Origin: Nanobdellota archaeon
Lineage (GTDB): Archaea; Nanobdellota; Nanobdellia; Pacearchaeales; GW2011-AR1
Reading direction: 5' to 3'
Assembly (NCBI GenBank): GCA_038044745.1
Contig: JBBSZK010000007.1
Coordinates: forward strand, 45,521 to 109,520
Length of the DNA stretch: 64,000 bases
Part shown: positions 1,940 through 56,914 of the stretch, in pieces
How the letters are laid out: each line of letters begins with the position of its first letter
Numbering within the stretch: position 1 is the stretch's first letter
The notes under the pieces: model-generated
What the model saw: only the letters and a program-made list of their open reading frames with translations
The model's database searches: none
Told to the model about the DNA's origin: nothing
Position numbers and translations under genes: made by a program

Positions 1940-2134
1940 CGCAATTGTTATAAATCGTTCTTGCCTCTTTAATTTATGAGTGATTATGTTTCTGTTGAAC
2001 GGCGAAAAAATAAGAATGATAAACGAGCTAAGCGGCGGTTTCGCGTCTATAAACAAGGCGGAACGTTTAGGGGAACCGAAGTTGCTGAGGGGAAAAGCCA
2101 CTAGAGTTATAAACTATCTTTCTCTTTGACAGGT

Positions 2135-2953
2135 ATGCAGGAGTATTATTTTTTATTCGGGTTAGGCTTTGTTTGGCTTTGTTTTGCCGTTGTGCAGGAC
2201 TTACGCACCCGTGAAATTTCTAATTGGTTGAATTTCTCTCTTTTGGGTCTTGCTCTTTTTTATCGAGGGTTTGTTGCATTTGACAGTGGCAAAGCGCAGT
2301 TCTTTTGGTGGGGTGTTGCAGGAACGTTCTTCTTTGTTGCTCTTGGGTATCTCCTTTACTATGGGCGTGCCTTTGCGGGGGGCGATGCTAAGCTCCTCAT
2401 GGCGTTAGGCCCTCTTATTCCCTTTGAGAGATTCAATGACCTCGTTGTGCTCGGGTTAGGTTTTGTGTTTGTCCTCTTTTTAGGAGGTTCGATTTATAGT
2501 TTGATTTATACGGCCGCTTATATTCCCTCTCGTTGGAAGCCCTTTAGTAACTGTTTTGCAGCCCGATGGAAGTCTTCTCGCTTTTTTATGTATCTCTGTT
2601 TTGTTTTAGGGGTCGTTATTGGCCTTTCTATGGCTCTCCTTGATGTTGTCGCAGGTTTGCTTTTTTTGGCGGCGTTTGCGTTGCTTCCATTTCTTTACCT
2701 TTATGGGAAAACGGTAGAATCTTGTTTTTTTATCAAACGAGTTCTTCCTTCGAAGCTTGCCGAAGGAGATTGGTTGGTGCGTGATGTTTCTGCTGGTGCT
2801 CAGGTTATTCGGGCGCGCGTTCATGGGCTAACTCTGAAAGAAATTGCGATGCTTCGGAAGGCCAAAAAATCGGTAACCATTAAAGAGGGTATTCCGTTTA
2901 GTCCCGCTTTCCTGTTGGCCTTTCTTGCTATGGTATTCTATGTTTTAAGATAA
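2135..2953 (+). CDS. prepilin/preflagellin peptidase, A24 aspartic protease family (PibD/FlaK-like)
   Basis: Polytopic membrane protein with the two A24 Asp motifs (VVQDLRTREISN and FAGGDAKLLMALG). ATG at 2135 lies about 25 nt after the TATA-like agagttataaac. Confidence 0.75.
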   Translation: MQEYYFLFGLGFVWLCFAVVQDLRTREISNWLNFSLLGLALFYRGFVAFDSGKAQFFWWGVAGTFFFVALGYLLYYGRAFAGGDAKLLMALGPLIPFERFNDLVVLGLGFVFVLFLGGSIYSLIYTAAYIPSRWKPFSNCFAARWKSSRFFMYLCFVLGVVIGLSMALLDVVAGLLFLAAFALLPFLYLYGKTVESCFFIKRVLPSKLAEGDWLVRDVSAGAQVIRARVHGLTLKEIAMLRKAKKSVTIKEGIPFSPAFLLAFLAMVFYVLR

Positions 2954-6760: not shown

Positions 6761-7072
6761 TTAATTGTATACCCTGTTCTCAGGAGTTGCGGGTGCGAGC
6801 CCCAGTTTTTTACGGCCCAGTTGTATAATTATGTCTAAGCGAGTAATTTTTCCTTCTGCATAGTCTCTCAGAAATTTTTCTGCATTTCCGTTGTATCTTG
6901 TTTCAACGATATTGACACAGGCTAATTGGGCTTTTCGTGCGCTTTCTGTAGGGTCGTCACCGGGTGTTGAAAGTGCGATATTCGCTGCTTCGCGCGCACC
7001 ATTCGGGTGGCTTCTCAGAACGTCGTAAATTTCTCTTTGTTTTTCGGTGAGTGTTTCAATGTTCTTTGTCAT
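6761..7072 (-). CDS. hypothetical protein
   Basis: 103-aa ORF in a gap between other calls. No motif recognised. Confidence 0.4.
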   Translation of the reverse strand: MTKNIETLTEKQREIYDVLRSHPNGAREAANIALSTPGDDPTESARKAQLACVNIVETRYNGNAEKFLRDYAEGKITRLDIIIQLGRKKLGLAPATPENRVYN

Positions 7073-7149
7073 GGTATGGGGTTCTTCCTTTTTGGGTTTT
7101 TAAAGTTATGCTATTCTTTTATGTCGTTTACTCTATTTGTTCAGAATTA

Positions 7150-7221
7150 CGCCCCCGCGAGGAATTGAACCCCGGTCCCAACCTCCGCAAGGTCGTATTC
7201 TATCCGTTAAACTACGGGGGC
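7150..7221 (-). tRNA. tRNA-Arg (anticodon GCG)
   Basis: 72-nt cloverleaf read by eye: acceptor GCCCCCG/CGGGGGC, anticodon arm CGACC-TTGCGGA-GGTTG, T arm CGGGG-TTCAATT-CCTCG. Confidence 0.85.
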
Positions 7222-7258
7222 GTGCTATTGGGGGGAGATAAGGGTTTTTAAACGTTGA

Positions 7259-7828
7259 TTAGAAGTGCCTATCGAGTTCTTTTGAGTAGTCGTGAATCTC
7301 TTTTTTAGTAAACCAGAGCGCAATTTCTCGTTCGGCGGTCTCTGGTGAGTCTGAAGCATGTACGAGATTTCTTAAGACGCGTTCTTTAGTGTTTGCGAGC
7401 GCATACGACTCAATCATGGCGTAGTCCCCTCTGATGGTGCCAGGAGTGGCTTGGCGTGGCTCGGTGCTGCCCACCATTTTTCGTACGATTTCTATCGCAT
7501 GAGGCCCTTGTAATACCATCGCGATAACTGGGCCCTCTTGTAAGAATGTTGCGTTCCACGATTGAATCAGGCCCCCATATTCCATGTAGTCTTTATAGGG
7601 GAATGGCTTGCCTTCGGTCTCCTTTGCTTTTTTTGTTTTTTCAAACACATTTTTTGCCCATTGCTCGTCTAGAAAATAATGCTTCTTGGCAAATGCCTCG
7701 TCTACCCAAACCATTTTCATTGCAGCTATCTTCAGACCCGTTTTTTCGAAACGAGTGATAATTTCTCCTACCAAGCTTCTTGATACGCTATCCGGTTTCA
7801 GCACGACCAGGGTTTGTTCTTTGACCAT
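7259..7828 (-). CDS. ndk: nucleoside diphosphate kinase (with an internal insertion)
   Basis: TLVVLKPDSV, GEIITRFEKTGLKI and NLVHASDS motifs. About 40 aa longer than typical NDKs. Confidence 0.9.
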   Translation of the reverse strand: MVKEQTLVVLKPDSVSRSLVGEIITRFEKTGLKIAAMKMVWVDEAFAKKHYFLDEQWAKNVFEKTKKAKETEGKPFPYKDYMEYGGLIQSWNATFLQEGPVIAMVLQGPHAIEIVRKMVGSTEPRQATPGTIRGDYAMIESYALANTKERVLRNLVHASDSPETAEREIALWFTKKEIHDYSKELDRHF

Positions 7829-7908
7829 ACTGTTCTCTGATTGGGTGTGTTTTAAAGATTATGGTCTCGTATATAAACGATTAAAAATAACTCGCTCTAT
7901 CTTATTCA

Positions 7909-21559: not shown

Positions 21560-21630
21560 GGCCTTGTAGTCTAATGGTAGAACGATCCCTTGACGTGGGA
21601 TAGGCCGCGGTCCGATTCCGCGCAGGGCCA
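21560..21630 (+). tRNA. tRNA-Val (anticodon GAC), atypical T loop
   Basis: Acceptor GGCCTTG/CAGGGCC, anticodon arm ATCCC-TTGACGT-GGGAT, T arm CGCGG-TCCGATT-CCGCG. The loop reads TCC rather than TTC. One D-stem mismatch. Confidence 0.7.
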
Positions 21631-21699
21631 TATATTCTTTAGTGCTCTTGTGCTTTTATTACTAAGTAAGTTAGTAATTTATGAAGTAAGTAAGGAAGC

Positions 21700-21707
21700 T
21701 TTATATA
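21700..21707 (+). promoter_or_regulatory. TATA box (tttatata) for the RHH / 620-aa / 1917-aa operon
   Basis: Consensus-like archaeal TATA about 35 nt upstream of the ATG at 21742. Confidence 0.45.
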
Positions 21708-21741
21708 CGTCTTTTTCTATGGTTCTTGGAAGAATTGTACA

Positions 21742-21876
21742 ATGAAGAAGTATCTGCTTTTGATTGAGGATGAGAAGTTGTGGGGCAGGTTTAAGGAAAC
21801 CATACAGAAGGACATCAATAGTGAGCTTATCGAACTTGTTAAAGAAAAAGTAAAACGAGGGGTTAAGCATGAGTAG
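21742..21876 (+). CDS. small ribbon-helix-helix (CopG-like) DNA-binding protein, 44 aa (below the ORF-track cutoff)
   Basis: My translation is MKKYLLLIEDEKLWGRFKETIQKDINSELIELVKEKVKRGVKHE, which has a strand-helix-helix layout. 8-nt overlap with the next ORF. Confidence 0.4.
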   Translation: MKKYLLLIEDEKLWGRFKETIQKDINSELIELVKEKVKRGVKHE

Positions 21877-23731
21877 ACGTGGGCAGGTTGCTCTGTTTGT
21901 TATTATCGCAGTTGTGCTTATCGGGATAATTGTGGCCTTTTTCGCATTTCGTGATACGATTGGATTGGCCTCTATTCATCCCGAACTTGAACCGGTCTTT
22001 GATTATTACACTACTTGTATTGATGACGCGGTGCGTGCCGGAACTTCTCTTGCCGGTTCTCAGGGTGGTCGTGTTGAGCCTGGCGCGTATACGCCTGGGA
22101 GCGATTATGCTCCCTTCTCTTCGCACTTGTTTTTTGCAGGTACCCAAGTTCCTTATTGGTTTATGATTTCAGGAAATGGAATCACTGTCGAAAACGTCCC
22201 TACTCGTGCGAATCTTGAATCGGAGCTTGAAGCTTTTGTTTCTGATAGGCTTGCGTCTTGTGATTTTTCTTCATTTAGAGAACAGGGATTCTCAGTCAAT
22301 GTTTCCTCGCGTCCTCACGTCGAATTAACTATGAATGATAGAAGCGTCGATGTTCGTGTTGTCGGTTCTCTTGTCGTTAGTCGAGCTGATCTGCGAGGGG
22401 TGCGAGAAATTCATGATGTGCAAGTTTCGAGCAAGCTCGGTAGTTTTCTCAATGCGGCTCGCACGTTTTACACACAACAGCAACAGAATTCTTATTTTGA
22501 CAATTATGCTGCAGACATTTTGAGACTTTATGCTCCGGTTGATGGCGTTTCAGTACAATGTGCTCCTGAAATTTGGAAGACGCGCGAAGTCTTTGAAGAG
22601 TTACAGCGGGCCTTTGAGGCGAACTTCGCGCATATCCAGTTCTCGGATACGCGTTCGTCGTTGAATGCTTCTCGAGCGTACTTTACCATTCCTCATCGTT
22701 TTTCTGATTCCGCACGTGTCCTTTATTCTTCTGAATGGCCTGTTTTCTTTGAGGTAACCCCTGCGGATGATGAATTGATGGTTGCTGAACCCGTGGGCAA
22801 TCAGAAGGGGCTTGGTGTTATGGGCTTCTGTTACGTGCCGTATCATTTTCTTTATGATATTCGTTTTCCCGTTATGGTTCAATTGTACGACGGTCAAGAT
22901 GTATTCCAGTTTCCGATAGTTGTTCTGGTTGATAAAAATGCTCCTCGCTCTGCTCTTTCAACGGGTGTTGCTCCCGAGCCTGCGTCTGCAGATGTATGCT
23001 CGTTTAAAGAAGGTCGTGCGACTATCTCTACGTTCGACGTACAACTTAATCCTGTTGAAGCGGAGGTCTTTTACCAGTGCTTTGATCAGCGATGTCCTTT
23101 AGGTGAGACGCGTATCTCTGAACAAACTGCGTCTCTTAACGCTGCTTTACCTGTGTGCACCAATGGACAGCTTATCGCTCGCGCAGAGAATTATAGTGAA
23201 GCGCGCATTCTATTTTCTTCTAATAGCGAGTCTTTTGCCGAATTGATTCTCGAGCGTCTGCATTCGGTTCGCGTTGATGTACTCGTTGACGGTCGTTCTA
23301 CAAAGGATTTAGCTATTATTCATTTTACGAAGAGCGATGGCACAACGGTCAGCGCCTTGTTACCTGAACAGCCCTCGGTTATGCTCGGAGAGGGATTGTA
23401 TAACATTAGCGTGTATGTTTATGGTAATTCGAGCGTTAGCTTGCCTAGTACAACTCGACAAGAATGTACTCAGGTTCCGCGTGGGGGGATTGCAGGGTTC
23501 TTTGGAAGTACAGAAGAACGTTGTTTTGCGATAACGAGTCCGGAGACTAACATTGACTCTGCATTGCGCGGGGGCGGACGCTCGTCTGATATTTATCTGC
23601 TCGAGAGCGATGTTGCAGAGGGTCGTATCGCGCTCTACGTGAACTCGCTTCCTGCCCCCACAAGTTTTGAACAGTTGCAAACAAACTTTGAACTATTTGA
23701 TGCAGCAACTCTGGAGGTGGGGGCTCCATGA
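21869..23731 (+). CDS. large extracellular protein with pilin-like class III signal peptide
   Basis: N-terminus MSRRG-QVALFVIIAVVLIGIIVAFF. 620 aa. ATGA overlap with the 1917-aa ORF. Confidence 0.6.
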   Translation: MSRRGQVALFVIIAVVLIGIIVAFFAFRDTIGLASIHPELEPVFDYYTTCIDDAVRAGTSLAGSQGGRVEPGAYTPGSDYAPFSSHLFFAGTQVPYWFMISGNGITVENVPTRANLESELEAFVSDRLASCDFSSFREQGFSVNVSSRPHVELTMNDRSVDVRVVGSLVVSRADLRGVREIHDVQVSSKLGSFLNAARTFYTQQQQNSYFDNYAADILRLYAPVDGVSVQCAPEIWKTREVFEELQRAFEANFAHIQFSDTRSSLNASRAYFTIPHRFSDSARVLYSSEWPVFFEVTPADDELMVAEPVGNQKGLGVMGFCYVPYHFLYDIRFPVMVQLYDGQDVFQFPIVVLVDKNAPRSALSTGVAPEPASADVCSFKEGRATISTFDVQLNPVEAEVFYQCFDQRCPLGETRISEQTASLNAALPVCTNGQLIARAENYSEARILFSSNSESFAELILERLHSVRVDVLVDGRSTKDLAIIHFTKSDGTTVSALLPEQPSVMLGEGLYNISVYVYGNSSVSLPSTTRQECTQVPRGGIAGFFGSTEERCFAITSPETNIDSALRGGGRSSDIYLLESDVAEGRIALYVNSLPAPTSFEQLQTNFELFDAATLEVGAP

Positions 23732-26700
23732 AACGCTTAACCTTTCTCTTTTGTTTTGCCCTTATCGTCTTTTCTGCATTTTTTGTTTCTGCAGCTACGT
23801 CGGGTTTTTATGGTACGAGTTCAGGTTCTTCTCGATATGTCCAGTACCAGCAGCCCGATTTTCGTCATTATTATTCGGGTGCGCAGATTCGAGACTATTG
23901 GCCCATTCTTGCAGAGGATCAAAAAGAAGTATGTGAAGGGAGACAAGATTTGCTTGTTAACGTCGCTCCCCTCGGTTGCCAGCCCGCCGTTGTTAGAAGC
24001 GATTTACTTGCTGAGCAAAACGTTCCGATGTTCTGCCAGCTTGACGCTCTTCGTGTTAATCCTCTTGTTGAAATTAAACAAATTCGAAATATTCGATTTA
24101 CGGGAACCTATCCTAAAGAGGTTGCCGGTGTCGGATTTCACCCTGCTCAAGCTGCGCTTCGCACGCGGGGAGATTTGTTAGGTAGCCCGCTTTTGAACAA
24201 TATAGGCTATGTTGTCGTTTTATTACGTCGCCAGGCGAATGAGTCTGCTCAACCTAATTTTGTAAACTTCACGTTGCAGGCGCAGGTCGATTATTATGCG
24301 GATAATGTTCTTGGTGTCGGGACGAGTTCTTTTTACTTACAGCCCGTGAGCGATGCACAATGGGTAGAGGCACGCCTTCGTCAAAGTTTCTTTAATGGGC
24401 GTTATTTCATTCGTCTTGATGAAGTCGATGATGCACGTGCACGTATTTCTATTTATCACGGAGATTCGAGAGTTTCATCTACGACTGTAACTCTTGGGTC
24501 TAAGTCCGAACAGGTTATGTATCTCCCTGGTTCGTACTGTCAATTAGGTCTGCGTGCTTACTTTGACCGTTTTGAACCTGCTCAACCGATGGCTCAAATG
24601 CAGGTTGGTGATGACCTCGTTGATGTTGTCGAAGGAGGACGTTTCGCACAAGAGCGGTGTGTTGTTCGCTCAGTTATTTCTACGGGTGCAGAAGCAGGTC
24701 GGGTCGATATTGTGTGTGGCTCTCAATCGTTCAGCTTGGAACTCGCACCTCGTGTTTTTGAAAAGGGAGATCTTGTTCTTGTTAGTGGTCGTGAATCCGA
24801 AGGGGTCTTTAGCGTGGGGTCGGTTGATTCTAAAAAAGGGGTTTATTCCTTGCGTGCGACTAATGGGACGATTGTTTCTGTAGACTATCTTTTGGTATAT
24901 TCTACGGAATCAGGGAGACTGACGGAATTCGAACATTCTGATAAAGATCTTGAAGCTTACTTCGCTAAGACTATCGCCCAGTATCGATTGCTCGCTCAGG
25001 ATTATCCTCTTGAAAAATCTCTCGCTACACAGAGTATCGATTCGGTTGCGAGTTTCGGTCAGCAAGGTCTTGAACGTGCGATTAGTTTAGCTGAAGATGT
25101 GGGCAAGCAACGTACGGCTGCTGAACTTATAGGGTATTATTTGGAACTTTATCCCACTTCTGATCGGGCTTCTTACTTTGATCGACGTTTGCGTTACGAC
25201 TATCGGCATGACTCTAATGCGGCAGTTGCCGTTGTAGATTTGAACGGTCAAACAACGAGTATTCGCTTACGGGCCATTATTCCGCCCCACGACTCTTCAA
25301 AGGCAGATTTCAGTTGGAACGGCCAACGATTTTCGGTTGCACTTGAGCGTAATTATACTTTTGCAGTTCAGAAATCATTAGGCGTGCTTTCATTGGATAA
25401 AGATCGCGTACGTGTTGTTGCCGATTGTGGTGGTACGACGAGTTCGCGTGAGGATCGTACACTCTCGCTCATTTCTCGAGTTCAAGGGAGCAGCGAGGGG
25501 CGTACGGCAGAGTTGTGCGGGGGCGTTTTGCGTCTTGAGTCTATTTCGGTGGAGAACTATGCGCACATACGGCTGGTACCTGAAGCACGTGGCCCTACCG
25601 TACAGACCAATTTTAGCGTAGGTGTTGGCATTGAACAGCGCGCAATAAAACTTGCTCCTGATAAGATACAGGAACGCATTGATACGCTTAACAAGACTAT
25701 CGCCAAATGGGAATCTATTTCAGAAGGTCTTGGCAATGTTGTGAAAACCATGAAGGCGGCTTGCTTCGCAACTGCGGGCGTGCTCACGGTAAAGAATTTT
25801 GTTACGGGTCTAGATGGTACGGCGCTCGCTCGTCAGAAAGTCATGCGCGGACCTAATGGATGGACCGAGTATTGTCGAGGTCGTGTGAATGCTCAGGATG
25901 ACGGACCGAGCTATAGTTCTCTTGGGGAATGTTACAAGGACAATAGCGCGCTCATTGATCAAGACGTCTCTACGATGTCTTCTCTTATACAGGCGGATAA
26001 TACCTGTATTCGTGCTGCCGAGAGCGGGGCGACTCAGTCTTCGGGCACGTTTGGAACCTATGTCGATGGCGAGAAAGCAAAGCAAGCGTTCATTCAACGT
26101 TGTCTTAACGGATATGAGAATGAGCGTATTCGTTTAAGTGATGGTCGCGATGTGAGCGTTTCTGAGCTTACTAAAAATGTTTCGGGCAGTGGCACGGTTA
26201 TGAGTTATCAAGAACTTAAAGACCTTAAATTGAATCTCGAGTTGCAAAAACGACGCGGTGATTCTCCGGTCGCAGGCGATCTTTCTCGCGAGCAATTGGG
26301 ACGTCTTGGTGATCGCATCAGTGGTCGTATTGCATCTATTGAGAGCCAAGCGTCTATTGCTGATCTCGCGGGCGGTCAGGTGGAACAGATTCAAGGAGAG
26401 TTTTCACGTACGTATAATTATTATGGGCAGACTATTTCTGATGCTGGTCCGCGATATGGGTTGCTCTCGAATGTGCTTCCTACAGGTAGCGCGGTACAAG
26501 TGATTATGGTTCCTGATGAGGGCGTTTCTAAACCCTATCTTGCGGTACTCGACCCTGCCAACCCGACGACAGGGTTACGGTCGGTTAACCGGTATTATGC
26601 TTTGAAGGAAGAGAATGGCGCGTACGTGGTTAACGATTCAGAGCCCGATGTTATTTCTTCTGAGGCGGGGCGCACGATAGGTCAGTTCCGCCAAGTGACG

Positions 26701-29481
26701 CGGGCATCGTGTATCAATCGATTTGATTTGAGCGATGAAGCGCGCACGGCACACTTTTATGAAACGGAACCGTATAAGGGCATGCCTGCGCTTGTGCCGT
26801 TTGACTTTGAACAAGGGTGGTATGTGGGTACGCGTCAGACCGTCGCCGCGTTTGGAGGCATTAAAGCGTTTCAATCTTCAGGGCGACCGGTGAGCTTTTG
26901 GATTTGTAATGTGGGTGGTGACAAGCGGCCTGACTTTTTTGTGAACGGATTTGATGACGATATCTGTCAGCAGTTTAATCTTGAAACGGGAGCGCCCCTT
27001 ACGAAGTTTTCGTGTTTGAGTGAGAGTGAAACGAAAGACCTTGTTGATCGCGCGGTGCGTGCGCTCGAAGAAGCCACTCATCAATATTCACAGGGCGCAA
27101 AAGATCGTATCTCTATTGAAGGTCAATCGGTTAGGGTCGGCGCTCCTGCAACTAATGTGCCGGGCACCCAATGTCAAGACTTCATGAGCCCCGATGATTG
27201 CAGACTCTTGTTTAATGTGTGTGATCCGGTGATTTGTCCCGCTTCTCGGTGCGACTTTGGAGGCAAGTATCCCGTAACTGATGTGATTCAGAGCGGGATT
27301 GTAGGGAGTGCGCTCTTATGTCTACCTAATTGGAACGAAGGAGTGTACGTGCCGGTTTGTCTTTCGGGTATTAAGGCCGGACTTGATAGTTATATCTCGG
27401 TTTTGAAATCGCATAAACAATGCCTTCAAGAGAATTTGGAAAGCGGGAAGTACATCGGTATCTGTGATCAGATAAGTGCGATTTATATGTGCGAATTCTT
27501 CTGGAGACAAGCGGCTCCTGTTGCGAATATCCTCTTGCCCAAACTGGTCGAATCGCTTTACGGTCAAGGCGGGGCGCGAGGCGGTGGCGAATATGCGACG
27601 GTGCAAGCCTCGTGGGACAACGCACAGCAGTCGGTCAATTACTTTACTCAAAGTTATGCCGCTAATTCGTTTAAGGCCTTCAATGTACGGTCGGTTGCGG
27701 ATGCGGGCGGAGAGTTTTGTAAAGCGTTTATCTCTGCGAAGGCGCCGACACAATTTGAATCGCTTATTGAACCTGATAGCCCTCCGCAATTCCATGCGTG
27801 GTTTAGTCAAATTCCGTATAGTGATGCGACGGTGCCCGCCACGGCACAGTACAAAGTCTTTTATCATATTTTTGCAGGTGATGATCAGGGTGTTTCGTAT
27901 CAGGTATACTTGAAAGATCCGCCTCAGACGTCGTATTATCAAAGCGCGAGCACTATTTACGTCGATTCGCAATATGTTTCGAAGGGAAGTTATAAAACTG
28001 AGACCAAAGACTTTACCGCTCCCTCGGGTTACCAACAATTGTGCGTGCGTGTCAATGATAAAGAGGAGTGCGGATTCAAACAGGTGAGTACAAGCTTTGC
28101 TATCAATACGGTGCGCGATGAATTTGTACAAGGAGAACTTGAGCGGACCGACATTGCTACCGAGCGTGAATGTGTCTCCGGACGCGTTAATCCGTCGGCG
28201 CTCTTGAATCCTAATCTGCAAGAGATGGGTCAAGAGGCTATCGACCCTGCTGTGTACAATCGGGGTGTAACTCGTATTTGTTCGACCGATAATCCCGGCA
28301 GAGCTACGGACCCTGCGCGATTTGTCAAGGTCGGTGTTTGCGACGATGCGCGTGTTGGATGCTGGCTCGACACCCAAAGCGTCGATCGAGCAATTACTGT
28401 AAACAATAAGGGAGCACGTAATGAGACGCTTGAAAAATTGCAGATCATGGCTGAGCAGCAGTTGCGAGACGATACTCAATTCCTGTTTGGAGATGACGAA
28501 TTGCGCCTGATTGAAGATTTAGATGGACGTGTTATAAAGGGCTCATTGGGTGCGACCGAAGCCGATGGGATTGTTCGCGAGGTCGATTCTCTTTTTGGCA
28601 AGGTCATTGTAAACGCACAGAAGGCTGAACTTTTGTTCATTAAAGGAAAAGCCTATGAAGCTGTAACGAGGGGATTATGGATTGAACTAAAAAAGAAGTC
28701 TCTGCCCAAGACTACCGCGCCCCAAGATACGCCTACTTCTGGTTCACAATCTACCGAACGTTCGGATAGCTCTTCTCAAGTATCTAGCAAATCATCTCCT
28801 ATTGCTAATCGTTATGCCCAACCTACAGACGGATGGACTATTGACTCCGCACTTCTTGTTCTTGATTCAAGTGATACGACGGTTGTTTATGCGGCTACGG
28901 GTGATGAAGGAAAGGCATTCACTATGTTTGTTGATCAATTGGCCAAACAAGGGATTATTTCTCCTAAGGAATTGAATGATATCGATGGTCGGTTTGGTTT
29001 GGGTCGAGAGGATGCTTCTCACGTTAACGATTTACTTCTGAAGAAACGCGCTCGTGAAGGATATCACGTTGTGTTGACGCCCGCGTCGGCTAGTTCCAGG
29101 GTATATCGAATTATGAGCGGAACGAGGGATACGGGGCTCTACATGACGACGTGGCCTTCCGTTGATGTGTTTACTTATTTCGTTGGCGATTCTGCGGCCT
29201 CTTCTCTTAACGCTGATGCGGCGAGGAAAGAGCGTCTACCCTTTGTTGATATTTTTGTTGATAGTTCCGCAGGCATGGTCTCTGTTGGAAAGGTTAAGTT
29301 TACGGGGGAAATCACTTATTTAGATGGTGATTATCTCAAAGATAAATTATCATTATCAAATGAAATAATTGATGATTTGAATGGTGCGGTGTTTGATGGC
29401 TATCGGTTTGTTCCTGCTCCTGTAATGCCCCGGGATTCTTCTTCTGATATTCCTACTGGGCCTGACTCCGGCTTTGATTAG
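23728..29481 (+). CDS. giant secreted protein (1917 aa), unknown function
   Basis: Uninterrupted 5.75-kb ORF. Sec-type signal peptide MKRLTFLFCFALIVFSAFFVSAATSG. Cys-rich central region and an S/T-rich linker near aa 1660-1700. No C-terminal TM segment. Confidence 0.8.
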   Translation: MKRLTFLFCFALIVFSAFFVSAATSGFYGTSSGSSRYVQYQQPDFRHYYSGAQIRDYWPILAEDQKEVCEGRQDLLVNVAPLGCQPAVVRSDLLAEQNVPMFCQLDALRVNPLVEIKQIRNIRFTGTYPKEVAGVGFHPAQAALRTRGDLLGSPLLNNIGYVVVLLRRQANESAQPNFVNFTLQAQVDYYADNVLGVGTSSFYLQPVSDAQWVEARLRQSFFNGRYFIRLDEVDDARARISIYHGDSRVSSTTVTLGSKSEQVMYLPGSYCQLGLRAYFDRFEPAQPMAQMQVGDDLVDVVEGGRFAQERCVVRSVISTGAEAGRVDIVCGSQSFSLELAPRVFEKGDLVLVSGRESEGVFSVGSVDSKKGVYSLRATNGTIVSVDYLLVYSTESGRLTEFEHSDKDLEAYFAKTIAQYRLLAQDYPLEKSLATQSIDSVASFGQQGLERAISLAEDVGKQRTAAELIGYYLELYPTSDRASYFDRRLRYDYRHDSNAAVAVVDLNGQTTSIRLRAIIPPHDSSKADFSWNGQRFSVALERNYTFAVQKSLGVLSLDKDRVRVVADCGGTTSSREDRTLSLISRVQGSSEGRTAELCGGVLRLESISVENYAHIRLVPEARGPTVQTNFSVGVGIEQRAIKLAPDKIQERIDTLNKTIAKWESISEGLGNVVKTMKAACFATAGVLTVKNFVTGLDGTALARQKVMRGPNGWTEYCRGRVNAQDDGPSYSSLGECYKDNSALIDQDVSTMSSLIQADNTCIRAAESGATQSSGTFGTYVDGEKAKQAFIQRCLNGYENERIRLSDGRDVSVSELTKNVSGSGTVMSYQELKDLKLNLELQKRRGDSPVAGDLSREQLGRLGDRISGRIASIESQASIADLAGGQVEQIQGEFSRTYNYYGQTISDAGPRYGLLSNVLPTGSAVQVIMVPDEGVSKPYLAVLDPANPTTGLRSVNRYYALKEENGAYVVNDSEPDVISSEAGRTIGQFRQVTRASCINRFDLSDEARTAHFYETEPYKGMPALVPFDFEQGWYVGTRQTVAAFGGIKAFQSSGRPVSFWICNVGGDKRPDFFVNGFDDDICQQFNLETGAPLTKFSCLSESETKDLVDRAVRALEEATHQYSQGAKDRISIEGQSVRVGAPATNVPGTQCQDFMSPDDCRLLFNVCDPVICPASRCDFGGKYPVTDVIQSGIVGSALLCLPNWNEGVYVPVCLSGIKAGLDSYISVLKSHKQCLQENLESGKYIGICDQISAIYMCEFFWRQAAPVANILLPKLVESLYGQGGARGGGEYATVQASWDNAQQSVNYFTQSYAANSFKAFNVRSVADAGGEFCKAFISAKAPTQFESLIEPDSPPQFHAWFSQIPYSDATVPATAQYKVFYHIFAGDDQGVSYQVYLKDPPQTSYYQSASTIYVDSQYVSKGSYKTETKDFTAPSGYQQLCVRVNDKEECGFKQVSTSFAINTVRDEFVQGELERTDIATERECVSGRVNPSALLNPNLQEMGQEAIDPAVYNRGVTRICSTDNPGRATDPARFVKVGVCDDARVGCWLDTQSVDRAITVNNKGARNETLEKLQIMAEQQLRDDTQFLFGDDELRLIEDLDGRVIKGSLGATEADGIVREVDSLFGKVIVNAQKAELLFIKGKAYEAVTRGLWIELKKKSLPKTTAPQDTPTSGSQSTERSDSSSQVSSKSSPIANRYAQPTDGWTIDSALLVLDSSDTTVVYAATGDEGKAFTMFVDQLAKQGIISPKELNDIDGRFGLGREDASHVNDLLLKKRAREGYHVVLTPASASSRVYRIMSGTRDTGLYMTTWPSVDVFTYFVGDSAASSLNADAARKERLPFVDIFVDSSAGMVSVGKVKFTGEITYLDGDYLKDKLSLSNEIIDDLNGAVFDGYRFVPAPVMPRDSSSDIPTGPDSGFD

Positions 29482-29751
29482 TGTACCGTATAGGCCATAT
29501 TTCTTATAATAACTTCAATAAAGTTTATTCGATTTTTGTTCATCCTTCGTCAAAAGGTATCAGTATTCTTGATGATTCGTTTGTGCTGGGAAATTTATCG
29601 AGGGCCGCGATAGCTGATGCGGGGAGCCTACACTCTGGCTTTGCGTTCAGAATAGCAGGTCATCTTGTTGTATTGTTCTAAATTCTTTTTTTATTTTCTC
29701 GGATTCATTCTTGCTCACTGAATTCTGTTCCGTTCGCTGCGATGAACCGAG

Positions 29752-29765
29752 ATGCGGGGACTAGG
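29752..29765. repeat. distal 14-nt direct repeat of the tRNA-Leu 3' end (ATGCGGGGACTAGG, plus-strand reading)
   Basis: Exact copy of 29840-29853. A weaker third copy, GATGCGGGGA, lies at 29616-29625. Confidence 0.6.
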
Positions 29766-29839
29766 TACTCGCGGAGTTTACTCCGCGGTAACTTCATTTC
29801 TGGCGAAATTGAAGTATTCGAACCGTTCGAATCTTTTTT

Positions 29840-29853
29840 ATGCGGGGACTAGG
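29840..29853. repeat. proximal 14-nt direct repeat overlapping the tRNA-Leu 3' end
   Basis: Covers the T-stem 3' strand, acceptor 3' strand, discriminator and 1 trailer nt of tRNA-Leu. Confidence 0.6.
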
Positions 29854-29924
29854 ATTCGAACCTAGGAAAGCACTAAGCTACGTGGTCCTAAGCCACGCCC
29901 GTTTGACCACTCCGGCATCCCCGC
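29841..29924 (-). tRNA. tRNA-Leu (anticodon UAG), class II with long variable arm
   Basis: Acceptor GCGGGGA/TCCCCGC, anticodon arm CGTGG-CTTAGGA-CCACG, long variable arm, T arm CTAGG-TTCGAAT-CCTAG. Confidence 0.85.
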
Positions 29925-29970: not shown

Positions 29971-30909
29971 CTACTTTTTGGCTTCTACCGGTACTGCTTT
30001 TTTCTGTTCGAATTCTTTCAACTTGTCTTCGATACCTAATCGTTCTATAAGCTCTTTGTATCTATTTCGGATGGTGACTTCTGTGATGCCTGCGACATCG
30101 GCGACTTCTCGCTGGGTGCGTTTTTCGCTGTTTACTAATGCGGCAACGTAGAGTGCCGCAGCGGCAATGCCTGCAGGGCCTCTTCCTGAAGTGAGCTCAG
30201 AGATATCTGCTTTTGCGAGGATTTTCAGGGCTTCATTTTGCGTTTTTGGTGAAAGGTGCAGGATTGAAGAAAATCGAGAAATGTAATCTTTGGGGGAACT
30301 CGGCCTTACTTTTATTCCGAGCTTTCTAATCATGAATCTGTACGTCCGTCCGATTTCTTTTCGTGGGACGTCTGACGTGGCTGCAATTTCATCAAGCGTT
30401 CTTGGAATGTTATACGAGCGACAGGCGGCGTATATACATGCGGCGATGACCGATTCCATACTTCTCCCTCTGACGAGGCCGCGTTGGAGTACGAAGTTGT
30501 AGACTCGTGCCGCTTCATCTTTCACGACGTTGGGTAGATTAAGAAAACTTGTTTCTCTACGAAGCTCGGCCATTGCGAGCCGGAGGTTTCTTTCTATGGA
30601 TGTGGAAACACGTTCCTGCCATTTTTTTAAACGAAGAAATTTACGTGTCTGTCCGTGATCGAGGCGATAGATATCCGAAATCTCTCCAACGTTAGTTGTA
30701 AGTCCCTTGTCAAATTTTTGAATTGAAAGTGGCGCGCCACCTCGACCCTTTTTTTCACTTTTATCGAATTGACCTCCGGTGTCTTGTCCGGTGTCAACCA
30801 TTTTTTCTTCAATGAGAAGTCCGCAGTCGTTACACACAATCTCGCCGCGCTGGTCATCATGGGTAAGGCTGATGCTTCCACATTCGGGGCAACGTTTGAT
30901 ATAACTCAT
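29971..30909 (-). CDS. tfb: transcription initiation factor B (TFB/TFIIB)
   Basis: N-terminal zinc ribbon CPECGS...CNDCG, two cyclin-fold repeats and a C-terminal HTH (EVADVAGITEVTIRNRYKEL). Confidence 0.95.
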   Translation of the reverse strand: MSYIKRCPECGSISLTHDDQRGEIVCNDCGLLIEEKMVDTGQDTGGQFDKSEKKGRGGAPLSIQKFDKGLTTNVGEISDIYRLDHGQTRKFLRLKKWQERVSTSIERNLRLAMAELRRETSFLNLPNVVKDEAARVYNFVLQRGLVRGRSMESVIAACIYAACRSYNIPRTLDEIAATSDVPRKEIGRTYRFMIRKLGIKVRPSSPKDYISRFSSILHLSPKTQNEALKILAKADISELTSGRGPAGIAAAALYVAALVNSEKRTQREVADVAGITEVTIRNRYKELIERLGIEDKLKEFEQKKAVPVEAKK

Positions 30910-33033: not shown

Positions 33034-33231
33034 ATGAATAAAAAAAAGTTGGTTATTAGGTTGTTAAAACGTAATCGTGATGGTCTTACGGTTGTTGAAA
33101 TTGCTCGAACGCTTTCCATATCTCGGAATACGGTTGCGGTTGTGCTTGCAGGACTCATCGGTGCGGAAATGGTGCGTGTGCGTCCTGTAGGTGTTGCCAA
33201 GCTTCATTATTGGCGGAGAGGAACCTCATGA
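33034..33231 (+). CDS. small winged-helix DNA-binding protein
   Basis: LTVVEIARTLSISRNTVAVVLAGLIGAEMVRVRPVG...HYW. ATGA overlap with the giant ORF start at 33228. Confidence 0.55.
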   Translation: MNKKKLVIRLLKRNRDGLTVVEIARTLSISRNTVAVVLAGLIGAEMVRVRPVGVAKLHYWRRGTS

Positions 33232-36200
33232 GATACATTCTTCTTTTAGCTGCATTATTGTTTATTGTGCTGCCTCTTGCGAGCGCGGCGACCCTCTTCT
33301 TTGACGGGTTTGAGTCTGGCACGCCCATACAAAACGGGTGGAACCTGCGTTCTATTTCGGCAGCGCAAAACTGGACTAATTCAAAGGTGAATCCGTTTCA
33401 AGGATTGCGGCATGCGCAATCACGACCTCTTTCGACAACGGTTCCTGCGAGCGTTATGTGGATTAATGTGAGTACGGTTGGATATACAAATGTTAGCGTA
33501 AGCTATTTCGTACGTCGTGTTGGGCTTGATGGTCCCGATGAATTTAATGTGACTTGGCATAACGGTACTGTGTGGGTGATGCTTGAACAGACGGGAAGTA
33601 GTTCTGCTAATGACGCTGCTTATGTAATGCGTAATTGGAGCTTGGGCGTGGCGGCGTCTAATAAATTGAACCTTACGATTCGTTTTGAATGCACGGCCGG
33701 AGCTGCTACGGAGTTCTGTCGTATTGACAATTTTAATATTACGGGGAATGTTTTAACTGACAGCACTCCTCCGCTCGTTAGTTTTATTACCCCCACCGAA
33801 GCCAATGAGTCGATTCTTTTGCGTTCGTTTATTCTGATTAATGTTACGGGGAACGATACTAATTTGGATAGACTAACGGTCCGCTTGTTTAACTCGAGTC
33901 ATTCACTTCTCTTTACTAATCTATCTTCTTCAAGTCCGTTTTTTGTTAATTATTCTGGGTTAAGTGATGGAAGATATTATTTCAATGCAAGTGCTAACGA
34001 CTCTGCTGGAAACGTTAACCATACGGAAACGAGAACGGTATTGATTGATGCTTTGGCGCCCGGATTGGCTATTGTTTCCCCCCTCCATGGAAATTACACC
34101 AATGCCCTGATTTTGATTAATATCTCTACGAGTGGTGCCGCGAGTGTGTGGTTTAATAACGGCACGGGAAATACGACGTACATAACCGAACTATATCAAA
34201 CGTTTGGGCAGGAATCGAACCTGCTTATCGCGTACGCGAACGACTCGGTTGGAAATCTTAATACGACAAATGTCACTTTCTTTATTGATTCGCTGGTACC
34301 ACACATTAGTTTTGGTGCGGGGACAAGTGCTTCGGGTAGTTCCGGTGTTCTCAGTTTGATTTATGTGGATATCAGCGCGAGCGATGCGAATGAGCAGAAT
34401 ATTGTCTTTAGTCTTTTTAATGCAACTTCATTAGTGGATCGTTCACAATTTGGTGCGGGCGCACGAGCGATTAACTGGACTAATTTAGCGAACGGTGTCT
34501 ATTTCTACAATGTTACCATCAATGACACGCTCGGAAATGCTAACTGGACTGAAACACGGAACCATACGGTTGATAATGTGGCTCCTCTGGTAGATGCGCT
34601 TGTTCCCGTTGCAGACACTACTTTTGCGCTCAATGGTTCTATTGAAATTGGCGTCAACGTGAGTGATGCGCATAGTTTTGTTTCAAGCGTTATTGCGTCT
34701 CTTGCTTATCCTAATGGGACATTTGTTAATCTCTCATTAGAAAATGTTCAGGGGGTTAAGTACAATGCGACCTTTGTTGTCCCCTATCTATTCGGCCGTT
34801 ATAACGTCAGTTTTTATGCGAATGATAGTCTTGGTAATGTGAATACTACTCAAACCACGTTTTTCACGGGTGCTGATGTAACTGCTCCGCGCTATTCAAA
34901 CGCAAGTCAAACGCCTGTCAGTCCGACAACCTACGCGCCTTTCAGAAACTATACGTTTAATATAACTTGGACAGATGAGGTTGCACTTAATAGCGTATTG
35001 TTTGAATTTAATTCTATTAACTATACGATGGCGCTACAAGGCTCGAGCGTTTACTCGATTACATTCTTTGATCTTGCTGCCGGTACTTATGCTTATCGTT
35101 ATCTCGCGAATGATTCTGCAGGTAATTGGAACTCCACGAGTCTCGATACCTATATTATTTCAAAATCTGTTCCGAATCTGAGTTTTCTCCTTAATGGAAC
35201 GGAGAGTAACTTGAGCCTCATGTATGGTGATGGCGTTAATGCTTCTGCACTATCGGCCACGAACACCGTTCAATTGTATCGAAATGGCGTGAACGTAACC
35301 TCTGAGAATCATCTTTTTGTAACGCTTGCGGTTGGGCAGTACAATTACACTGCGACCGCGTTCGAAAATCAAAACTATAGCCTATTGAACCTTACTCGCT
35401 CAGTGTTTATTAGTCCGGCTATCGGTGCAGTGACGTTACTTCTCAACAGTTCTGCTTCTAATCAGACGGGCTTTTATGGTGTGTTGACTAACGCTTCTGC
35501 ATCAACGCCGTACGGAGTTGTAACCTTGTATCGCGATGGTGTTGACGTGACTGGCGCCAATCATCACCTTATGCAACTCGCTTCTGGAGATTATAATTGG
35601 ACGGCAGTTAGTTCGGGTAACGAAAACTATTCGAGTTCAAGTATAGCTCTGTGGAGCCATATTGCTCGAGCGCAGGGAAATGTAACACTCTTGCTTAACG
35701 GCTCTGCAGAAAATCTTACAATTTCTTATCCTGGGCAGGTTAATGCATCAGCTACTTCGGCTACGGGCGGCATCCAATTGTACCGTAACGGTGTTAATAT
35801 GACCAACGAAAATCACCAATTTGTGGGGCTTGCGGTTGGGCAGTATAACTATACTGCTTTTGCACTTGAAAGCCAAAACTATACCAATGCTTCGACGTTA
35901 GTGCGTGCAACTATCATAGGTGTTGTGCCCGATTTGAATATTTCGATAACGCCTTCTTCGAACGTGGTATATCCTACGGCAACAACGGCTTTGGGAATAG
36001 GTTGCGTGGATGAATTGACGTGTGTCCTTTATCGTAATCATGCCTTCGTTTCTAATCCCGATAGCGCAACCCTCGGAGCGGGAACGTATATGTATGTGTA
36101 TAATACGACGGGTAATGAGAACTATAGCTCTGCAAGTTTTTCACGCATACTTATTGTCAATCAAAGTACGGGCTTAGTTTACGCGTACGTTAACCATGCG

Positions 36201-55634: not shown

Positions 55635-56507
55635 ATGACAGCACAAGCACAATCTGTTGAAGTTGAAGCAGAACATAATAGCAATAGTCTTATCTATAAA
55701 ATTGCTCCATGGGGAACCGCAGTAAAATCATTATATGACGCTGGTGCCAAAGTTATCAGTTCTCGTGACCTTGCTGATGCTCGTATTGCTCTCGGTTCAC
55801 AATCTAGCGTTTCAGCCAATGGAAGCTACACAAAAGAAGGATTTATTTATGTTGCAGACCAAAAACCTCTTGTTGTTGCAGAATCTCCGCTTTTGGATGT
55901 TATGCTAGCAAGAGGCGCAAGTGACGCACACAAGGCTGAAAGCGAGGTTTTTTATGATGCTAAAGATGTTTTCGCACAACTTGATGAAGATGCAAATAAA
56001 GCTCCCCAAGACCGACGTGTCTTGCGATTAAAAAAAGATAAAAGCTATTCTGTTCCAACCAATCGATTTGGTGAAGATGAGTTGGCTTTGTTCTTATTCA
56101 AAGACAGAGCAACTGCTTATGGTACATTCTTGCGTTCTAACGACATTAAAGATATGCCTGTTTGGGTTGTTGATAAATCATATATTGATAAACAAGGTTC
56201 TCCTTTTGTTAGACAGTTGTGGCTTCACAGGCTTGACGTTGACAACCAGTCTGTTGTCTATGGCGACAACGGGGACCTCGACATGAGCAACAGGGTTCGC
56301 GGGGTGCGTCCGTCTGTCGCGAGCGAAGCTCGCGTGCGCTCTGCTGAAAGCACAGGGCAAGTTAGTGAAAATAGCGAACTTGCATACGACCCTGCACAGA
56401 TTAGTGAATATCAAACTATCCTTCAAGAAGTTCGTAAGGGAGACCGCGCCGCTTCAGACCTAGAACAAGTCTTAGAGTTTATTAATGGATTGCCGGTTAA
56501 GAAGTAA
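55635..56507 (+). CDS. DGR target (variable) protein, 290 aa; VR encoded at aa 194-225
   Basis: Contains the VR at 56216-56307 (LWLHRLDVDNQSVVYGDNGDLDMSNRVRGV). No N-terminal signal peptide or TM segment visible. TATA gtttaaaaag lies about 25 nt upstream. Confidence 0.85.
   Translation: MTAQAQSVEVEAEHNSNSLIYKIAPWGTAVKSLYDAGAKVISSRDLADARIALGSQSSVSANGSYTKEGFIYVADQKPLVVAESPLLDVMLARGASDAHKAESEVFYDAKDVFAQLDEDANKAPQDRRVLRLKKDKSYSVPTNRFGEDELALFLFKDRATAYGTFLRSNDIKDMPVWVVDKSYIDKQGSPFVRQLWLHRLDVDNQSVVYGDNGDLDMSNRVRGVRPSVASEARVRSAESTGQVSENSELAYDPAQISEYQTILQEVRKGDRAASDLEQVLEFINGLPVKK
56216..56307 (+). repeat. DGR variable repeat (VR)
   Basis: 92 nt aligned without gaps to TR (offset 582). 10 mismatches, all opposite TR adenines. 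All 64 non-A TR positions are identical. Confidence 0.9.
56318..56334 (+). promoter_or_regulatory. GC-rich hairpin 11 nt downstream of VR (CGCGAGC-gaa-GCTCGCG), candidate DGR target-recognition hairpin
   Basis: Perfect 7-bp stem seen in the sequence. Its position matches the hairpin/cruciform element described downstream of VR in characterised DGRs. Confidence 0.5.
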
Positions 56508-56797
56508 AATTCAGTACATTCCAAAACAACTATTTCTTCTTACAACAATCATTAAAAACTGTTAATTTTTGTTAATCATGCCTCGGTCACTCTGTACTGA
56601 TATGAACGGAGCATTACGAGGCCACACGTCTTTGTATTAGTCTTGCGAACGCAAGCAGTAAAATACAACTGCGACAGCCAGTATGCTATCCGGATGGCGA
56701 ACCCTGAAGCAGTGGTGACGAGCATTTACATTCAGATAAATGTGTAATTGATTTCTGAATGTGGGTGCGAGTAAATTAGGTACAAGGGCTACCCTGT

Positions 56798-56889
56798 GTT
56801 GTGGCTTCACAGGCTTGACGATGACAACCAGTCTGATGTCAATGGCAACAACAGGAACCTCGACATGAACAACAGGGTTCGCGGAATGA
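56798..56889 (+). repeat. DGR template repeat (TR)
   Basis: Non-coding copy of VR, 25 nt upstream of the RT start. 28 adenines, many in AAC/AAT-type codon positions (frame reads LHRLDDDNQSDVNGNNRNLDMNNRVRG). Confidence 0.9.
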
Positions 56890-56914
56890 CCTCAGACCGA
56901 GGTTTCATACTTAA

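Follow-up and report, generated by a model that had tools for sequence, protein, structure and literature searches.

A vertically inherited three-gene operon of Pacearchaeota-type archaea as a candidate surface-complex locus

The 64,000-nucleotide (nt) stretch of DNA from a Nanobdellota archaeon analysed here (contig JBBSZK010000007.1; the whole stretch is referred to as the window) carries, between its genes for tRNA-Val and tRNA-Leu, three overlapping genes encoding a basic protein of 44 amino acids (aa), a 620-aa protein with a prepilin-type signal (p620) and a protein of 1917 aa predicted to be exported (the giant). Comparison with related loci indicates that the trio is an ancient, vertically inherited operon, fixed in place among hundreds of Pacearchaeota-type DPANN archaea. 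As a core, single-copy, vertically inherited unit of these archaea, the operon is most likely to build an envelope or attachment complex at the cell surface, an interpretation which is favoured here tentatively.

Layout, conservation and origin of the operon

The open reading frames (ORFs) and tRNA genes of the window were surveyed, and the tRNA genes were called with ARAGORN and Rfam. The locus consists of the following features:

21560..21630, + strand: tRNA-Val(GAC) gene (ARAGORN; Rfam, 56.5 bits)
21659..21698, no strand assigned: T-W-A-S array, about 10 tetramers repeated every 4 nt, ending one base short of the TATA box
21700..21707, + strand: TATA box TTTATATA, preceded by the purine-rich GGAAGC, which resembles a B recognition element (BRE)
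21742..21876, + strand: 44-aa ORF, first gene of the operon
21869..23731, + strand: p620, 620 aa, second gene
23728..29481, + strand: giant, 1917 aa, third gene
27172..27492, + strand: Cys-rich block of the giant (aa 1149-1255), with 10 Cys invariant in 47 homologs
28708..29478, + strand: hypervariable C-terminal tail of the giant (aa 1661-1917), after a Ser/Thr/Pro-rich linker
29482..29840, no strand assigned: variable spacer from the stop codon of the giant to tRNA-Leu, without a match in Rfam
29841..29924, - strand: tRNA-Leu(TAG) gene (ARAGORN; Rfam)
29971..30909, - strand: TFB gene, next after tRNA-Leu

The segment 21631-29506 is filled by the three ORFs only, and the operon extends over about 7.7 kb as a single promoter-to-terminator unit. 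The 44-aa ORF and p620 overlap by 8 nt, p620 and the giant by 4 nt (ATGA), and the Shine-Dalgarno-like motifs GGAGGTG and GAGGGG are located within the upstream genes, just 5' of the overlapping start codons. An earlier note on this DNA had described three overlapping genes between tRNA-Val (+) and tRNA-Leu (-), and all of them were recovered at the positions given there. The gene content of the window is archaeal and includes TFB, S3Ae, L44e, S8e, GINS, RadA, SRP54, FtsY, TFE and several aminoacyl-tRNA synthetases. Because genes of the ribosomal, transcription and replication type (TFB, S3Ae, GINS and others) populate the window, the operon is considered to lie in a housekeeping region.

The conservation of the locus was determined in two ways. 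A scan of one genome per GTDB species gave 498 loci with a p620 relative, the best 80 of which were analysed. The trio was colinear in all 80 p620-anchored loci, wherever the contig permits, at identities down to 40%. In 57 of the 75 informative loci, the tRNA-Val(gac) gene immediately preceded the operon in the same orientation; S3Ae-L44e upstream and TFB-S8e-RNase Z downstream were frequent neighbours. For an operon-independent test, metagenome loci were fetched via the neighbouring TFB gene (79-97% identity). No empty site was observed among the 42 TFB-anchored loci with enough flank, and the giant adjoined TFB in the expected orientation in every one of them; 38 further loci were too short for scoring. 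The tRNA-Leu(tag) gene was found downstream in 35 of 56 p620-anchored loci and also in most of the TFB-anchored ones. Overlaps of -4, -8 or -11 nt were usual at both junctions of the operon across the related loci, and the sequence comparison indicates that the giant and p620 are translationally coupled throughout the lineage.

Homologs of the giant (more than 400, with 40-91% identity) and of p620 (more than 750, with 43-89% identity over the full length) come from metagenome-assembled genomes (MAGs) labelled Pacearchaeota, Nanoarchaeota or Woesearchaeota, and the locus tags of the two are often adjacent. The closest relatives come from the 0.1-µm fraction of Hainich groundwater. Pairwise distances of both proteins were correlated with those of S3Ae (r = 0.82 for p620 and 0.78 for the giant; S3Ae against L44e gave 0.81). 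The mean pairwise distance of p620 (0.51) was close to that of S3Ae (0.46), i.e., the two proteins diverge at a similar rate. The conserved neighbourhood indicates that tRNA-Val is the ancestral upstream neighbour of the operon and not an integration target, and that tRNA-Leu is the ancestral downstream neighbour. One MAG, SRP269290_co4_219, contained two contigs (L020 and L070), each with a p620-giant locus; this was the sole such case among the 80 loci and could reflect strain mixing or a true duplicate.

These observations bear directly on the origin of the segment, which the earlier note had taken for an island inserted in the interval from tRNA-Val to tRNA-Leu, with a 13-nt attachment-site repeat at its borders. 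The two flanking tRNA genes, the imperfect 13/14-nt direct repeat at both ends and a slightly elevated GC content are in line with such a reading. Both repeat copies were indeed found where the note had located them, GGCCATATATTCTT at 21626-21639 and GGCCATATTTCTT at 29493-29505, and only about 0.3% of random 100-nt window pairs reach the score of the repeat, but the match needs an indel and was picked after the fact. Moreover, the right copy was present neither in two relatives with 91% identity (L081 and L082) nor in a relative with 67% identity (L083). Therefore, the 13-nt repeat is not considered an attachment-site repeat and does not mark an island boundary. Each copy is situated in a T-rich stretch directly after a gene end, and such stretches could be termination signals, which would explain their resemblance.

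The composition of the operon, which the earlier note had suggested comparing with that of core genes, proved host-typical. The total GC content amounts to 0.46-0.50, compared with about 0.43 in the flanks, but the excess is confined to codon positions 1 and 2. The GC content at third codon positions (GC3) is 0.389 in p620 and 0.413 in the giant, and 0.404 +/- 0.043 in the other genes of the window. The correlation of relative synonymous codon usage (RSCU) for the operon genes (0.84-0.87) resembles that of other + strand genes. No integrase or mobility gene was found within 21631-29506, a Pfam and NCBIfam scan of the three ORFs gave no hit above threshold, and a search of phage, plasmid and IMG/VR collections returned no relatives of the operon. 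The co-variation of the operon protein distances with S3Ae also speaks against an island. Since the operon represents conserved core synteny without an empty site, the pattern that the earlier note itself had named as contradicting its proposal, the island reading is regarded as refuted and retains virtually no probability. Two tRNA flanks and a short repeat are thus insufficient for calling an island in such genomes.

A separate observation concerns the strand asymmetry of the window. The AT skew of the + strand is about -0.1 to -0.4 nearly throughout the window, and the GC skew is mostly positive. The RSCU correlation with the pool ranges from 0.70 to 0.89 for + strand genes and from 0.07 to 0.22 for - strand genes. 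Given this strong strand dependence of codon usage, tests of expression or foreignness that are based on codons are confounded in this window, and codon usage was dropped as a proxy for expression.

The two large proteins

The p620 protein begins with a class III (prepilin-type) signal, MSRRG/QVALFVIIAVVLIGIIVAFF, in which the slash marks the predicted cleavage point. The RRGQ class III signal noticed earlier was well supported, and its motif is conserved family-wide. Across 120 homologs, position -1 was occupied by G in 100 and by A in 18 of 118 sequences, with no other residue, position +1 was Q in 117 and position -2 was K or R in 105. The family motif can be written as [KR][KR][GA]/Q followed by a hydrophobic stretch, with a leader of 0 to 39 aa. 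The protein also contains 10 invariant Cys. The AlphaFold2 (AF2) model of p620 reached a predicted local distance difference test (pLDDT) score of 87.9 and comprises a helix at residues 3-26, a low-confidence linker and a second helix at residues 41-64, followed by about 560 aa of further domains:

about aa 41-360: α/β domain (AF2)
about aa 380-595: two β-sandwiches (AF2)
C-terminal to these: a helix (AF2)

Foldseek searches with this model pointed to tandem CnaB/Ig-like stalks of Gram-positive tip pilins and adhesins and to SlaB (E 1e-6 to 1e-3, TM-score 0.12-0.17), and searches against PDB and BFVD also returned phage fibre proteins; all TM-scores were below 0.2, and the matches are generic β-sandwiches. 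Sequence and profile searches in Pfam, NCBIfam and PDB gave no match above threshold for p620; a hit to a Mu-transposase C-terminal domain scored 16 bits (E 0.009), below the cutoff of 27, and was discarded as chance. The signal and the model together suggest a pilin-type anchored stalk protein rather than a canonical pilin, and p620 is presumed to be the membrane or pilus anchor for the giant. An enzyme that may process p620 in trans is encoded in the same window:

2126..2953, + strand: Peptidase_A24 (prepilin peptidase; PF01478, E 1.2e-12, 48.7 bits with the cutoff at 26.5)

Directly upstream of this gene, at 93-1939, four small pilin-like ORFs were observed, with the N-termini MQRRG/VV.., MLARRA/QLG.., ..SKRG/QEMSIST.. 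and MISRRG/IELAVST.., so that a pilin-plus-peptidase locus occupies 93-2953.

The giant begins with a Sec-type signal, read directly from the sequence as aa 1-23, MKRLTFLFCFALIVFSAFFVSA/A (...FVSA/A). Beyond this signal no transmembrane segment was found, the top 19-residue Kyte-Doolittle value being 1.3, which agrees with the Sec signal and the lack of a membrane anchor described in the earlier note. A comparison with 46 homologs revealed a mosaic structure. Conserved blocks at aa 41-320, 601-720 and 1001-1560 (mean identity of 53%, 59% and 64%, respectively) alternate with variable blocks at aa 321-600, 721-1000 and 1561-1660, and identity in the blocks between the conserved ones amounts to 23-27%. 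Of the 35 Cys of the giant about 30 are invariant, and about 17 invariant ones were counted for the conserved core. The Cys-rich block seen by the earlier note at about aa 1140-1290 corresponds to the ten invariant Cys at aa 1149-1255; it is mildly hydrophobic and, with about 80-87% column conservation, is the best-conserved stretch of the protein.

A profile of aa 601-1660 of the giant matched 1253 representative proteins at E<=1e-3, and 1055 of these reached E<=1e-30. Searches of the giant in Pfam and NCBIfam and sequence and profile searches in PDB gave no match, and the conserved core showed no recognisable catalytic motif. Thus, as far as sequence comparison reaches, the family of the giant is large yet isolated in sequence space, and the earlier impression that neither large protein belongs to a recognisable family held against Pfam, NCBIfam and PDB sequences. 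The AF2 model of aa 601-1660, built from a 19-sequence alignment, was poor (pLDDT 60.2), and in the Cys-rich block pLDDT fell below 50, with the worst values where conservation peaks. Such a combination of high conservation with low pLDDT would be in keeping with a metastable region or with an interface, either within an oligomer or to a partner. An ApaG/FnIII-like β-sandwich of about 115 aa returned by Foldseek for the giant was generic and came from this poor model; it was not used for functional assignment.

The C-terminal tail of the giant shows a completely different degree of conservation. Its mean identity to the 46 homologs is 7%, compared with 64% for the core; against a 91%-identical relative, the core of the giant is 97% and the tail 67-72% identical. 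A homolog search with the tail gave no hit, which is a false negative caused by the word filter, as the tail of P0001 is 72% identical. Tail lengths among homologs range from 32 to 957 aa, and Pfam hits (matrixin, astacin, DUF4347 and RecD2 HHH) were obtained in 4 of 60 tails. The tail is therefore presumed, from this sequence pattern, to be the outward-facing and specificity-determining part of the giant. Both large proteins are acidic, with isoelectric points (pI) of 5.1 and 4.7, and N-glycosylation sequons are not enriched (9 observed, about 9.7 expected).

The 44-aa protein, the promoter array and further features of the window

The 44-aa protein (pattern MKKYLLLIEDEKLWxKFK...INSE...) is the most conserved product of the operon, with 65% mean column identity over 54 orthologues, and tblastn matches to it were found in about 68 of the 80 loci. 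It is basic (pI 9.05) and was read as cytoplasmic. The earlier note had labelled it a ribbon-helix-helix (RHH) protein, a label that the searches did not bear out. No match to RHH or to any other family was obtained in Pfam and NCBIfam for the protein itself, in Pfam for 53 orthologues, or with the profile against PDB sequences. In an hhalign comparison with Arc, 28 columns of the helix A/B region, including 'NSE[IL]', were aligned with a probability of only 12%, and the alignment to CopG was limited to MKK and the strand. Direct reading shows that the N-terminal strand YLLLIE is all hydrophobic and has no alternating polar residues. The RHH repressors Arc/Mnt, CopG and the ω repressor (with its heptad arrays) bind short-repeat arrays upstream of promoters. 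The present case resembles them in that the operon opens with a gene for a basic protein of about 45 aa, 'INSE[IL]' aligns at the start of Arc helix B and a repeat array abuts the promoter; it differs from them in the lack of a match to an RHH model, in the all-hydrophobic strand and in the 4-nt period of the repeats. The 44-aa protein may be a small DNA-binding regulator, with the RHH fold serving as a lead and not as a finding.

The array consists of the tetramers TTAC TAAG TAAG TTAG TAAT TTAT GAAG TAAG TAAG GAAG and is the only such cluster in the window. Of 69 related loci, 66 have the array in register with the TATA box; the motif TTT[AT][AT]ATA is kept in 66 of 69 loci as well, mostly 37-47 nt 5' of the ATG of the small ORF. 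A scan of 1.22 Mb of related loci detected 85 arrays, each of them no more than 280 nt upstream of the small ORF. By analogy with the known archaeal BRE/TATA architecture, the TATA box at 21700 is presumed to be the promoter of the operon. The T-W-A-S array, judged by its position and conservation, is a dedicated candidate operator or upstream activating element, for which the 44-aa protein would be the obvious candidate partner. An explanation of the array as stop codons in all six frames was excluded, since forward frame 1 of the array in the window has no stop. No description of a T-W-A-S promoter array was found in the literature searched.

Downstream of the operon, the distance from the end of the giant to TFB varies among relatives from 525 to 8298 nt. 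The spacer of close relatives contains a lipoprotein-like gene of 292-300 aa (...LVASTAALAGC...) without a Pfam hit, located as follows:

L081, 15721-16599, convergent to the giant: lipoprotein-like gene
L083, 15554-16456, convergent to the giant: lipoprotein-like gene

This gene is missing from the window, and tblastn of 29482-29840 revealed no remnant of it. On the upstream side, L083 carries at 6814-7878 a LAGLIDADG-type homing-endonuclease ORF (354 aa; PF14528, E 1.7e-7), which ends within the 5' end of tRNA-Val and does not occur in the window.

Elsewhere in the window, at 55635-57999, a diversity-generating retroelement was observed, with the following parts:

55635-56507: target ORF, 290 aa, with the variable repeat at 56216-56302
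56798-56884: template repeat, 87 nt, 92% identical to the variable repeat
56915-57595 and 57496-57999: reverse transcriptase in two overlapping ORFs (RVT_1, E 1e-5)

All seven mismatches between the template and variable repeats fall on template adenines, the diagnostic feature of diversity-generating retroelements. The reverse transcriptase is possibly split by a frameshift.

Interpretation of the operon

While the island proposed by the earlier note was abandoned, its suggestion of an attachment apparatus may be kept in a broader form, as a surface complex is still the best available reading of the class III signal, the prepilin peptidase, the Sec-exported giant without an anchor and the coupling of the genes. 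In the proposed mechanism, the TATA box at 21700 and the T-W-A-S array of about 40 nt would drive one transcript, and coupled translation would favour a fixed stoichiometry of the products. The p620 protein would be cut after Gly5 by the A24 prepilin peptidase encoded at 2126-2953, and its hydrophobic N-terminal helix would retain it either in the membrane or as part of a short pilus-like stalk, with the β-sandwiches acting as a spacer. The giant would leave the cell via Sec, fold into a rigid structure with about 17 disulfides and dock on p620, which would keep this otherwise unanchored protein at the surface. Its core (aa 1001-1560) would mediate assembly, and the fast-evolving tail would point outward and touch a partner, either a host cell or a substrate. 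The basic 44-aa protein would be a cytoplasmic accessory, most likely a DNA-binding regulator acting on the T-W-A-S array.

A pairing of similar proteins is encoded a short distance downstream in the window:

33210-39107: second giant, 1965 aa, with a Sec signal, a Big_13 Ig-like domain and a C-terminal PRC barrel
39626-41770: 714-aa protein with the class III-like N-terminus MVEQRG/VSILFAIV

The presence of a giant and a class III protein side by side at 33210-41770 suggests that such a pairing is a recurring design in this genome. An 881-aa subtilase completes this second set of surface-protein genes, which occupies 33210-44446. The 67%-identical relative L083 has genes for proteins of 717 aa and 889 aa directly after RNase Z; judged from size and position alone, the 1965-aa gene would have no counterpart there and would hence be the variable element.

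Several points weigh against the surface-complex reading or limit its firmness. The fold of p620 is not canonical for a pilin, as the helix 3-26 is set apart from the helix 41-64 and the protein has 620 aa, and no pilus ATPase or platform gene was found in the operon or among the ORFs of the window that were scanned. The model of the giant (pLDDT 60) is too poor to support any mechanism, and the YLLLIE strand of the 44-aa protein is atypical for a DNA-reading RHH ribbon. Conservation, synteny, coupling of the genes, the signal motifs, the domain layout and the existence of the peptidase gene are shown by the data, and we infer from them that the signal is cleaved, that p620 touches the giant, that both are located at the surface, what the tail does and that the regulator pairs with the operator. 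Moreover, adhesins are usually variable and multi-copy, and a single-copy complex whose p620 component diverges like S3Ae fits an essential element of the surface layer (S-layer) type at least as well.

The latter alternative, the main rival and rated somewhat less probable than the favoured reading, assumes a two-component S-layer in which the giant forms the lattice canopy and p620 the anchored stalk, with a function resembling that of SlaA/SlaB, so that the complex would be the cell wall itself. It accounts well for an operon that is universal, single-copy, placed among housekeeping genes and evolving near the rate of ribosomal proteins, and an unusual dedicated promoter could serve very high expression. 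The best-conserved region of the giant cannot be modelled as a monomer, as would be expected for lattice contacts, and the acidity of both proteins fits as well. The SlaA/SlaB system of Sulfolobales (PDB 8qox) offers a close parallel, since its operon also joins a very large, unanchored secreted protein to a smaller anchored β-sandwich partner with a core, single-copy envelope function, and SlaB (8qox_B, E 1.1e-3) was among the Foldseek β-sandwich matches of p620. However, this match is generic (TM-score 0.13-0.17), and no sequence or fold homology to solved S-layer proteins, SlaA and SlaB included, was found. The anchor differs too, being an N-terminal class III helix here and a C-terminal transmembrane segment with a coiled coil there, and the gene order here is reversed. 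Archaeal S-layer proteins are known as β-rich and Cys-poor, whereas for the giant, which is Cys-rich, about 17 disulfides and a mostly helical structure are predicted, which would be unusual in this class. A lattice is further disfavoured by the sequons, which are not enriched, and by the core, whose 64% identity over more than 1000 sequence clusters is unusually high for a lattice that is exposed.

The conserved N-terminal body of about 1650 aa linked to a hypervariable tail also recalls a secreted or delivered effector, of the polymorphic-toxin or enzyme-like kind, in which the body would deliver or process and the variable tail would act on the host or on competitors. The metalloprotease domains (matrixin, astacin) in a few tails and the variable gene just downstream in some relatives could be understood in this way. 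Nevertheless, 56 of 60 tails have no recognisable domain, and the downstream gene is convergent, lipoprotein-like and often absent, unlike the arrangement of an immunity gene. Since, in addition, the core has neither a recognised catalytic motif nor a Pfam or PDB match, and its strict single-copy status is atypical of toxin systems, the effector explanation is considered improbable. To a similarly small degree, and even slightly less, the giant may be credited with being a host-membrane-engaging device on a p620 stalk, in which the Cys-stapled region at aa ~1149-1280, read as amphipathic, Gly-rich helices with invariant cysteines, would serve as a metastable membrane-inserting or fusion element. 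If this were true, the operon would be the core machinery by which Pacearchaeota-type DPANN archaea open a connection to their hosts; the hypervariable tail would aim the device, and the T-W-A-S operator together with the 44-aa regulator would gate its expression.

The favoured surface complex can also be compared with type IV pilus tip complexes (bacterial PilY1 with minor pilins), in which a Sec-exported large non-pilin likewise stands beside a protein with a prepilin signal and is held at the surface via the N-terminal helix of its partner, in genomes that, like this one, encode a prepilin peptidase and pilins. The giant, however, contains no β-propeller, no PilY1/PilC and no other Pfam domain of that kind (60 tails were scanned), a link to an ATPase or platform is lacking here, p620 far exceeds the size of a minor pilin, and the present pair is strictly conserved and single-copy. 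In the Sulfolobus bindosome, large non-pilin extracellular proteins are held at the surface through a prepilin-type signal and its peptidase. The p620 protein is also a large non-pilin with a prepilin-type signal, but the bindosome is made of solute-binding proteins of ABC transporters; p620 lacks a domain of this type and has a giant as its coupled partner. The class III-signal, substrate-binding bindosome of Sulfolobus and adhesin-like proteins encoded in archaeal type IV filament loci are both mentioned in a bioRxiv study (10.64898/2026.04.22.720090). An archaeal surface protein on a prepilin-type anchor, or a large adhesin accompanied by pilus proteins, is an already known kind of system (10.64898/2026.04.22.720090).

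Within the DPANN archaea, very large extracellular proteins of ultra-small symbionts provide another point of reference. The SPEARE proteins of Nanohaloarchaeota are giant DPANN surface proteins with a presumed role in host contact. Proteins of up to 3000 aa with a murein-transglycosylase domain are encoded by Pacearchaeota and Woesearchaeota (PMC8204110). Both groups, which are presumed to serve in host contact, resemble the giant in size and extracellular nature but have recognisable enzyme or adhesion domains and a patchy distribution, whereas the giant described here has no recognised domain and is lineage-universal and fixed in position. Pacearchaeota-specific modules of protein families without predicted function have also been reported, and for many lineage-specific DPANN families a membrane-bound or extracellular location is predicted (PMC8204110). 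In the literature searched, no description was found of the fixed three-gene operon, of the isolated family of the giant, whose modelled part has no recognised fold, or of its mosaic of conserved blocks with a hypervariable tail; on this family and on the S-layer of Pacearchaeota, there were only general statements on lineage-specific hypothetical and extracellular families, and a metaproteome paper on Pacearchaeota names no more than 'hypothetical proteins'.

Summarizing, groundwater and lakes harbour abundant Pacearchaeota-type DPANN archaea, which are uncultivated and presumed to be obligate symbionts with very small genomes, and about 7.7 kb of such a genome is spent here on one single-copy, position-fixed unit without a known family or fold. 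The pilin-type anchor with its candidate peptidase, the conserved core, the hypervariable tail and the unique promoter element with its candidate regulator offer handles for experiments. The operon thus bears on how these archaea are enveloped and how they contact their hosts, and its hypervariable tail may encode the specificity for the partner.

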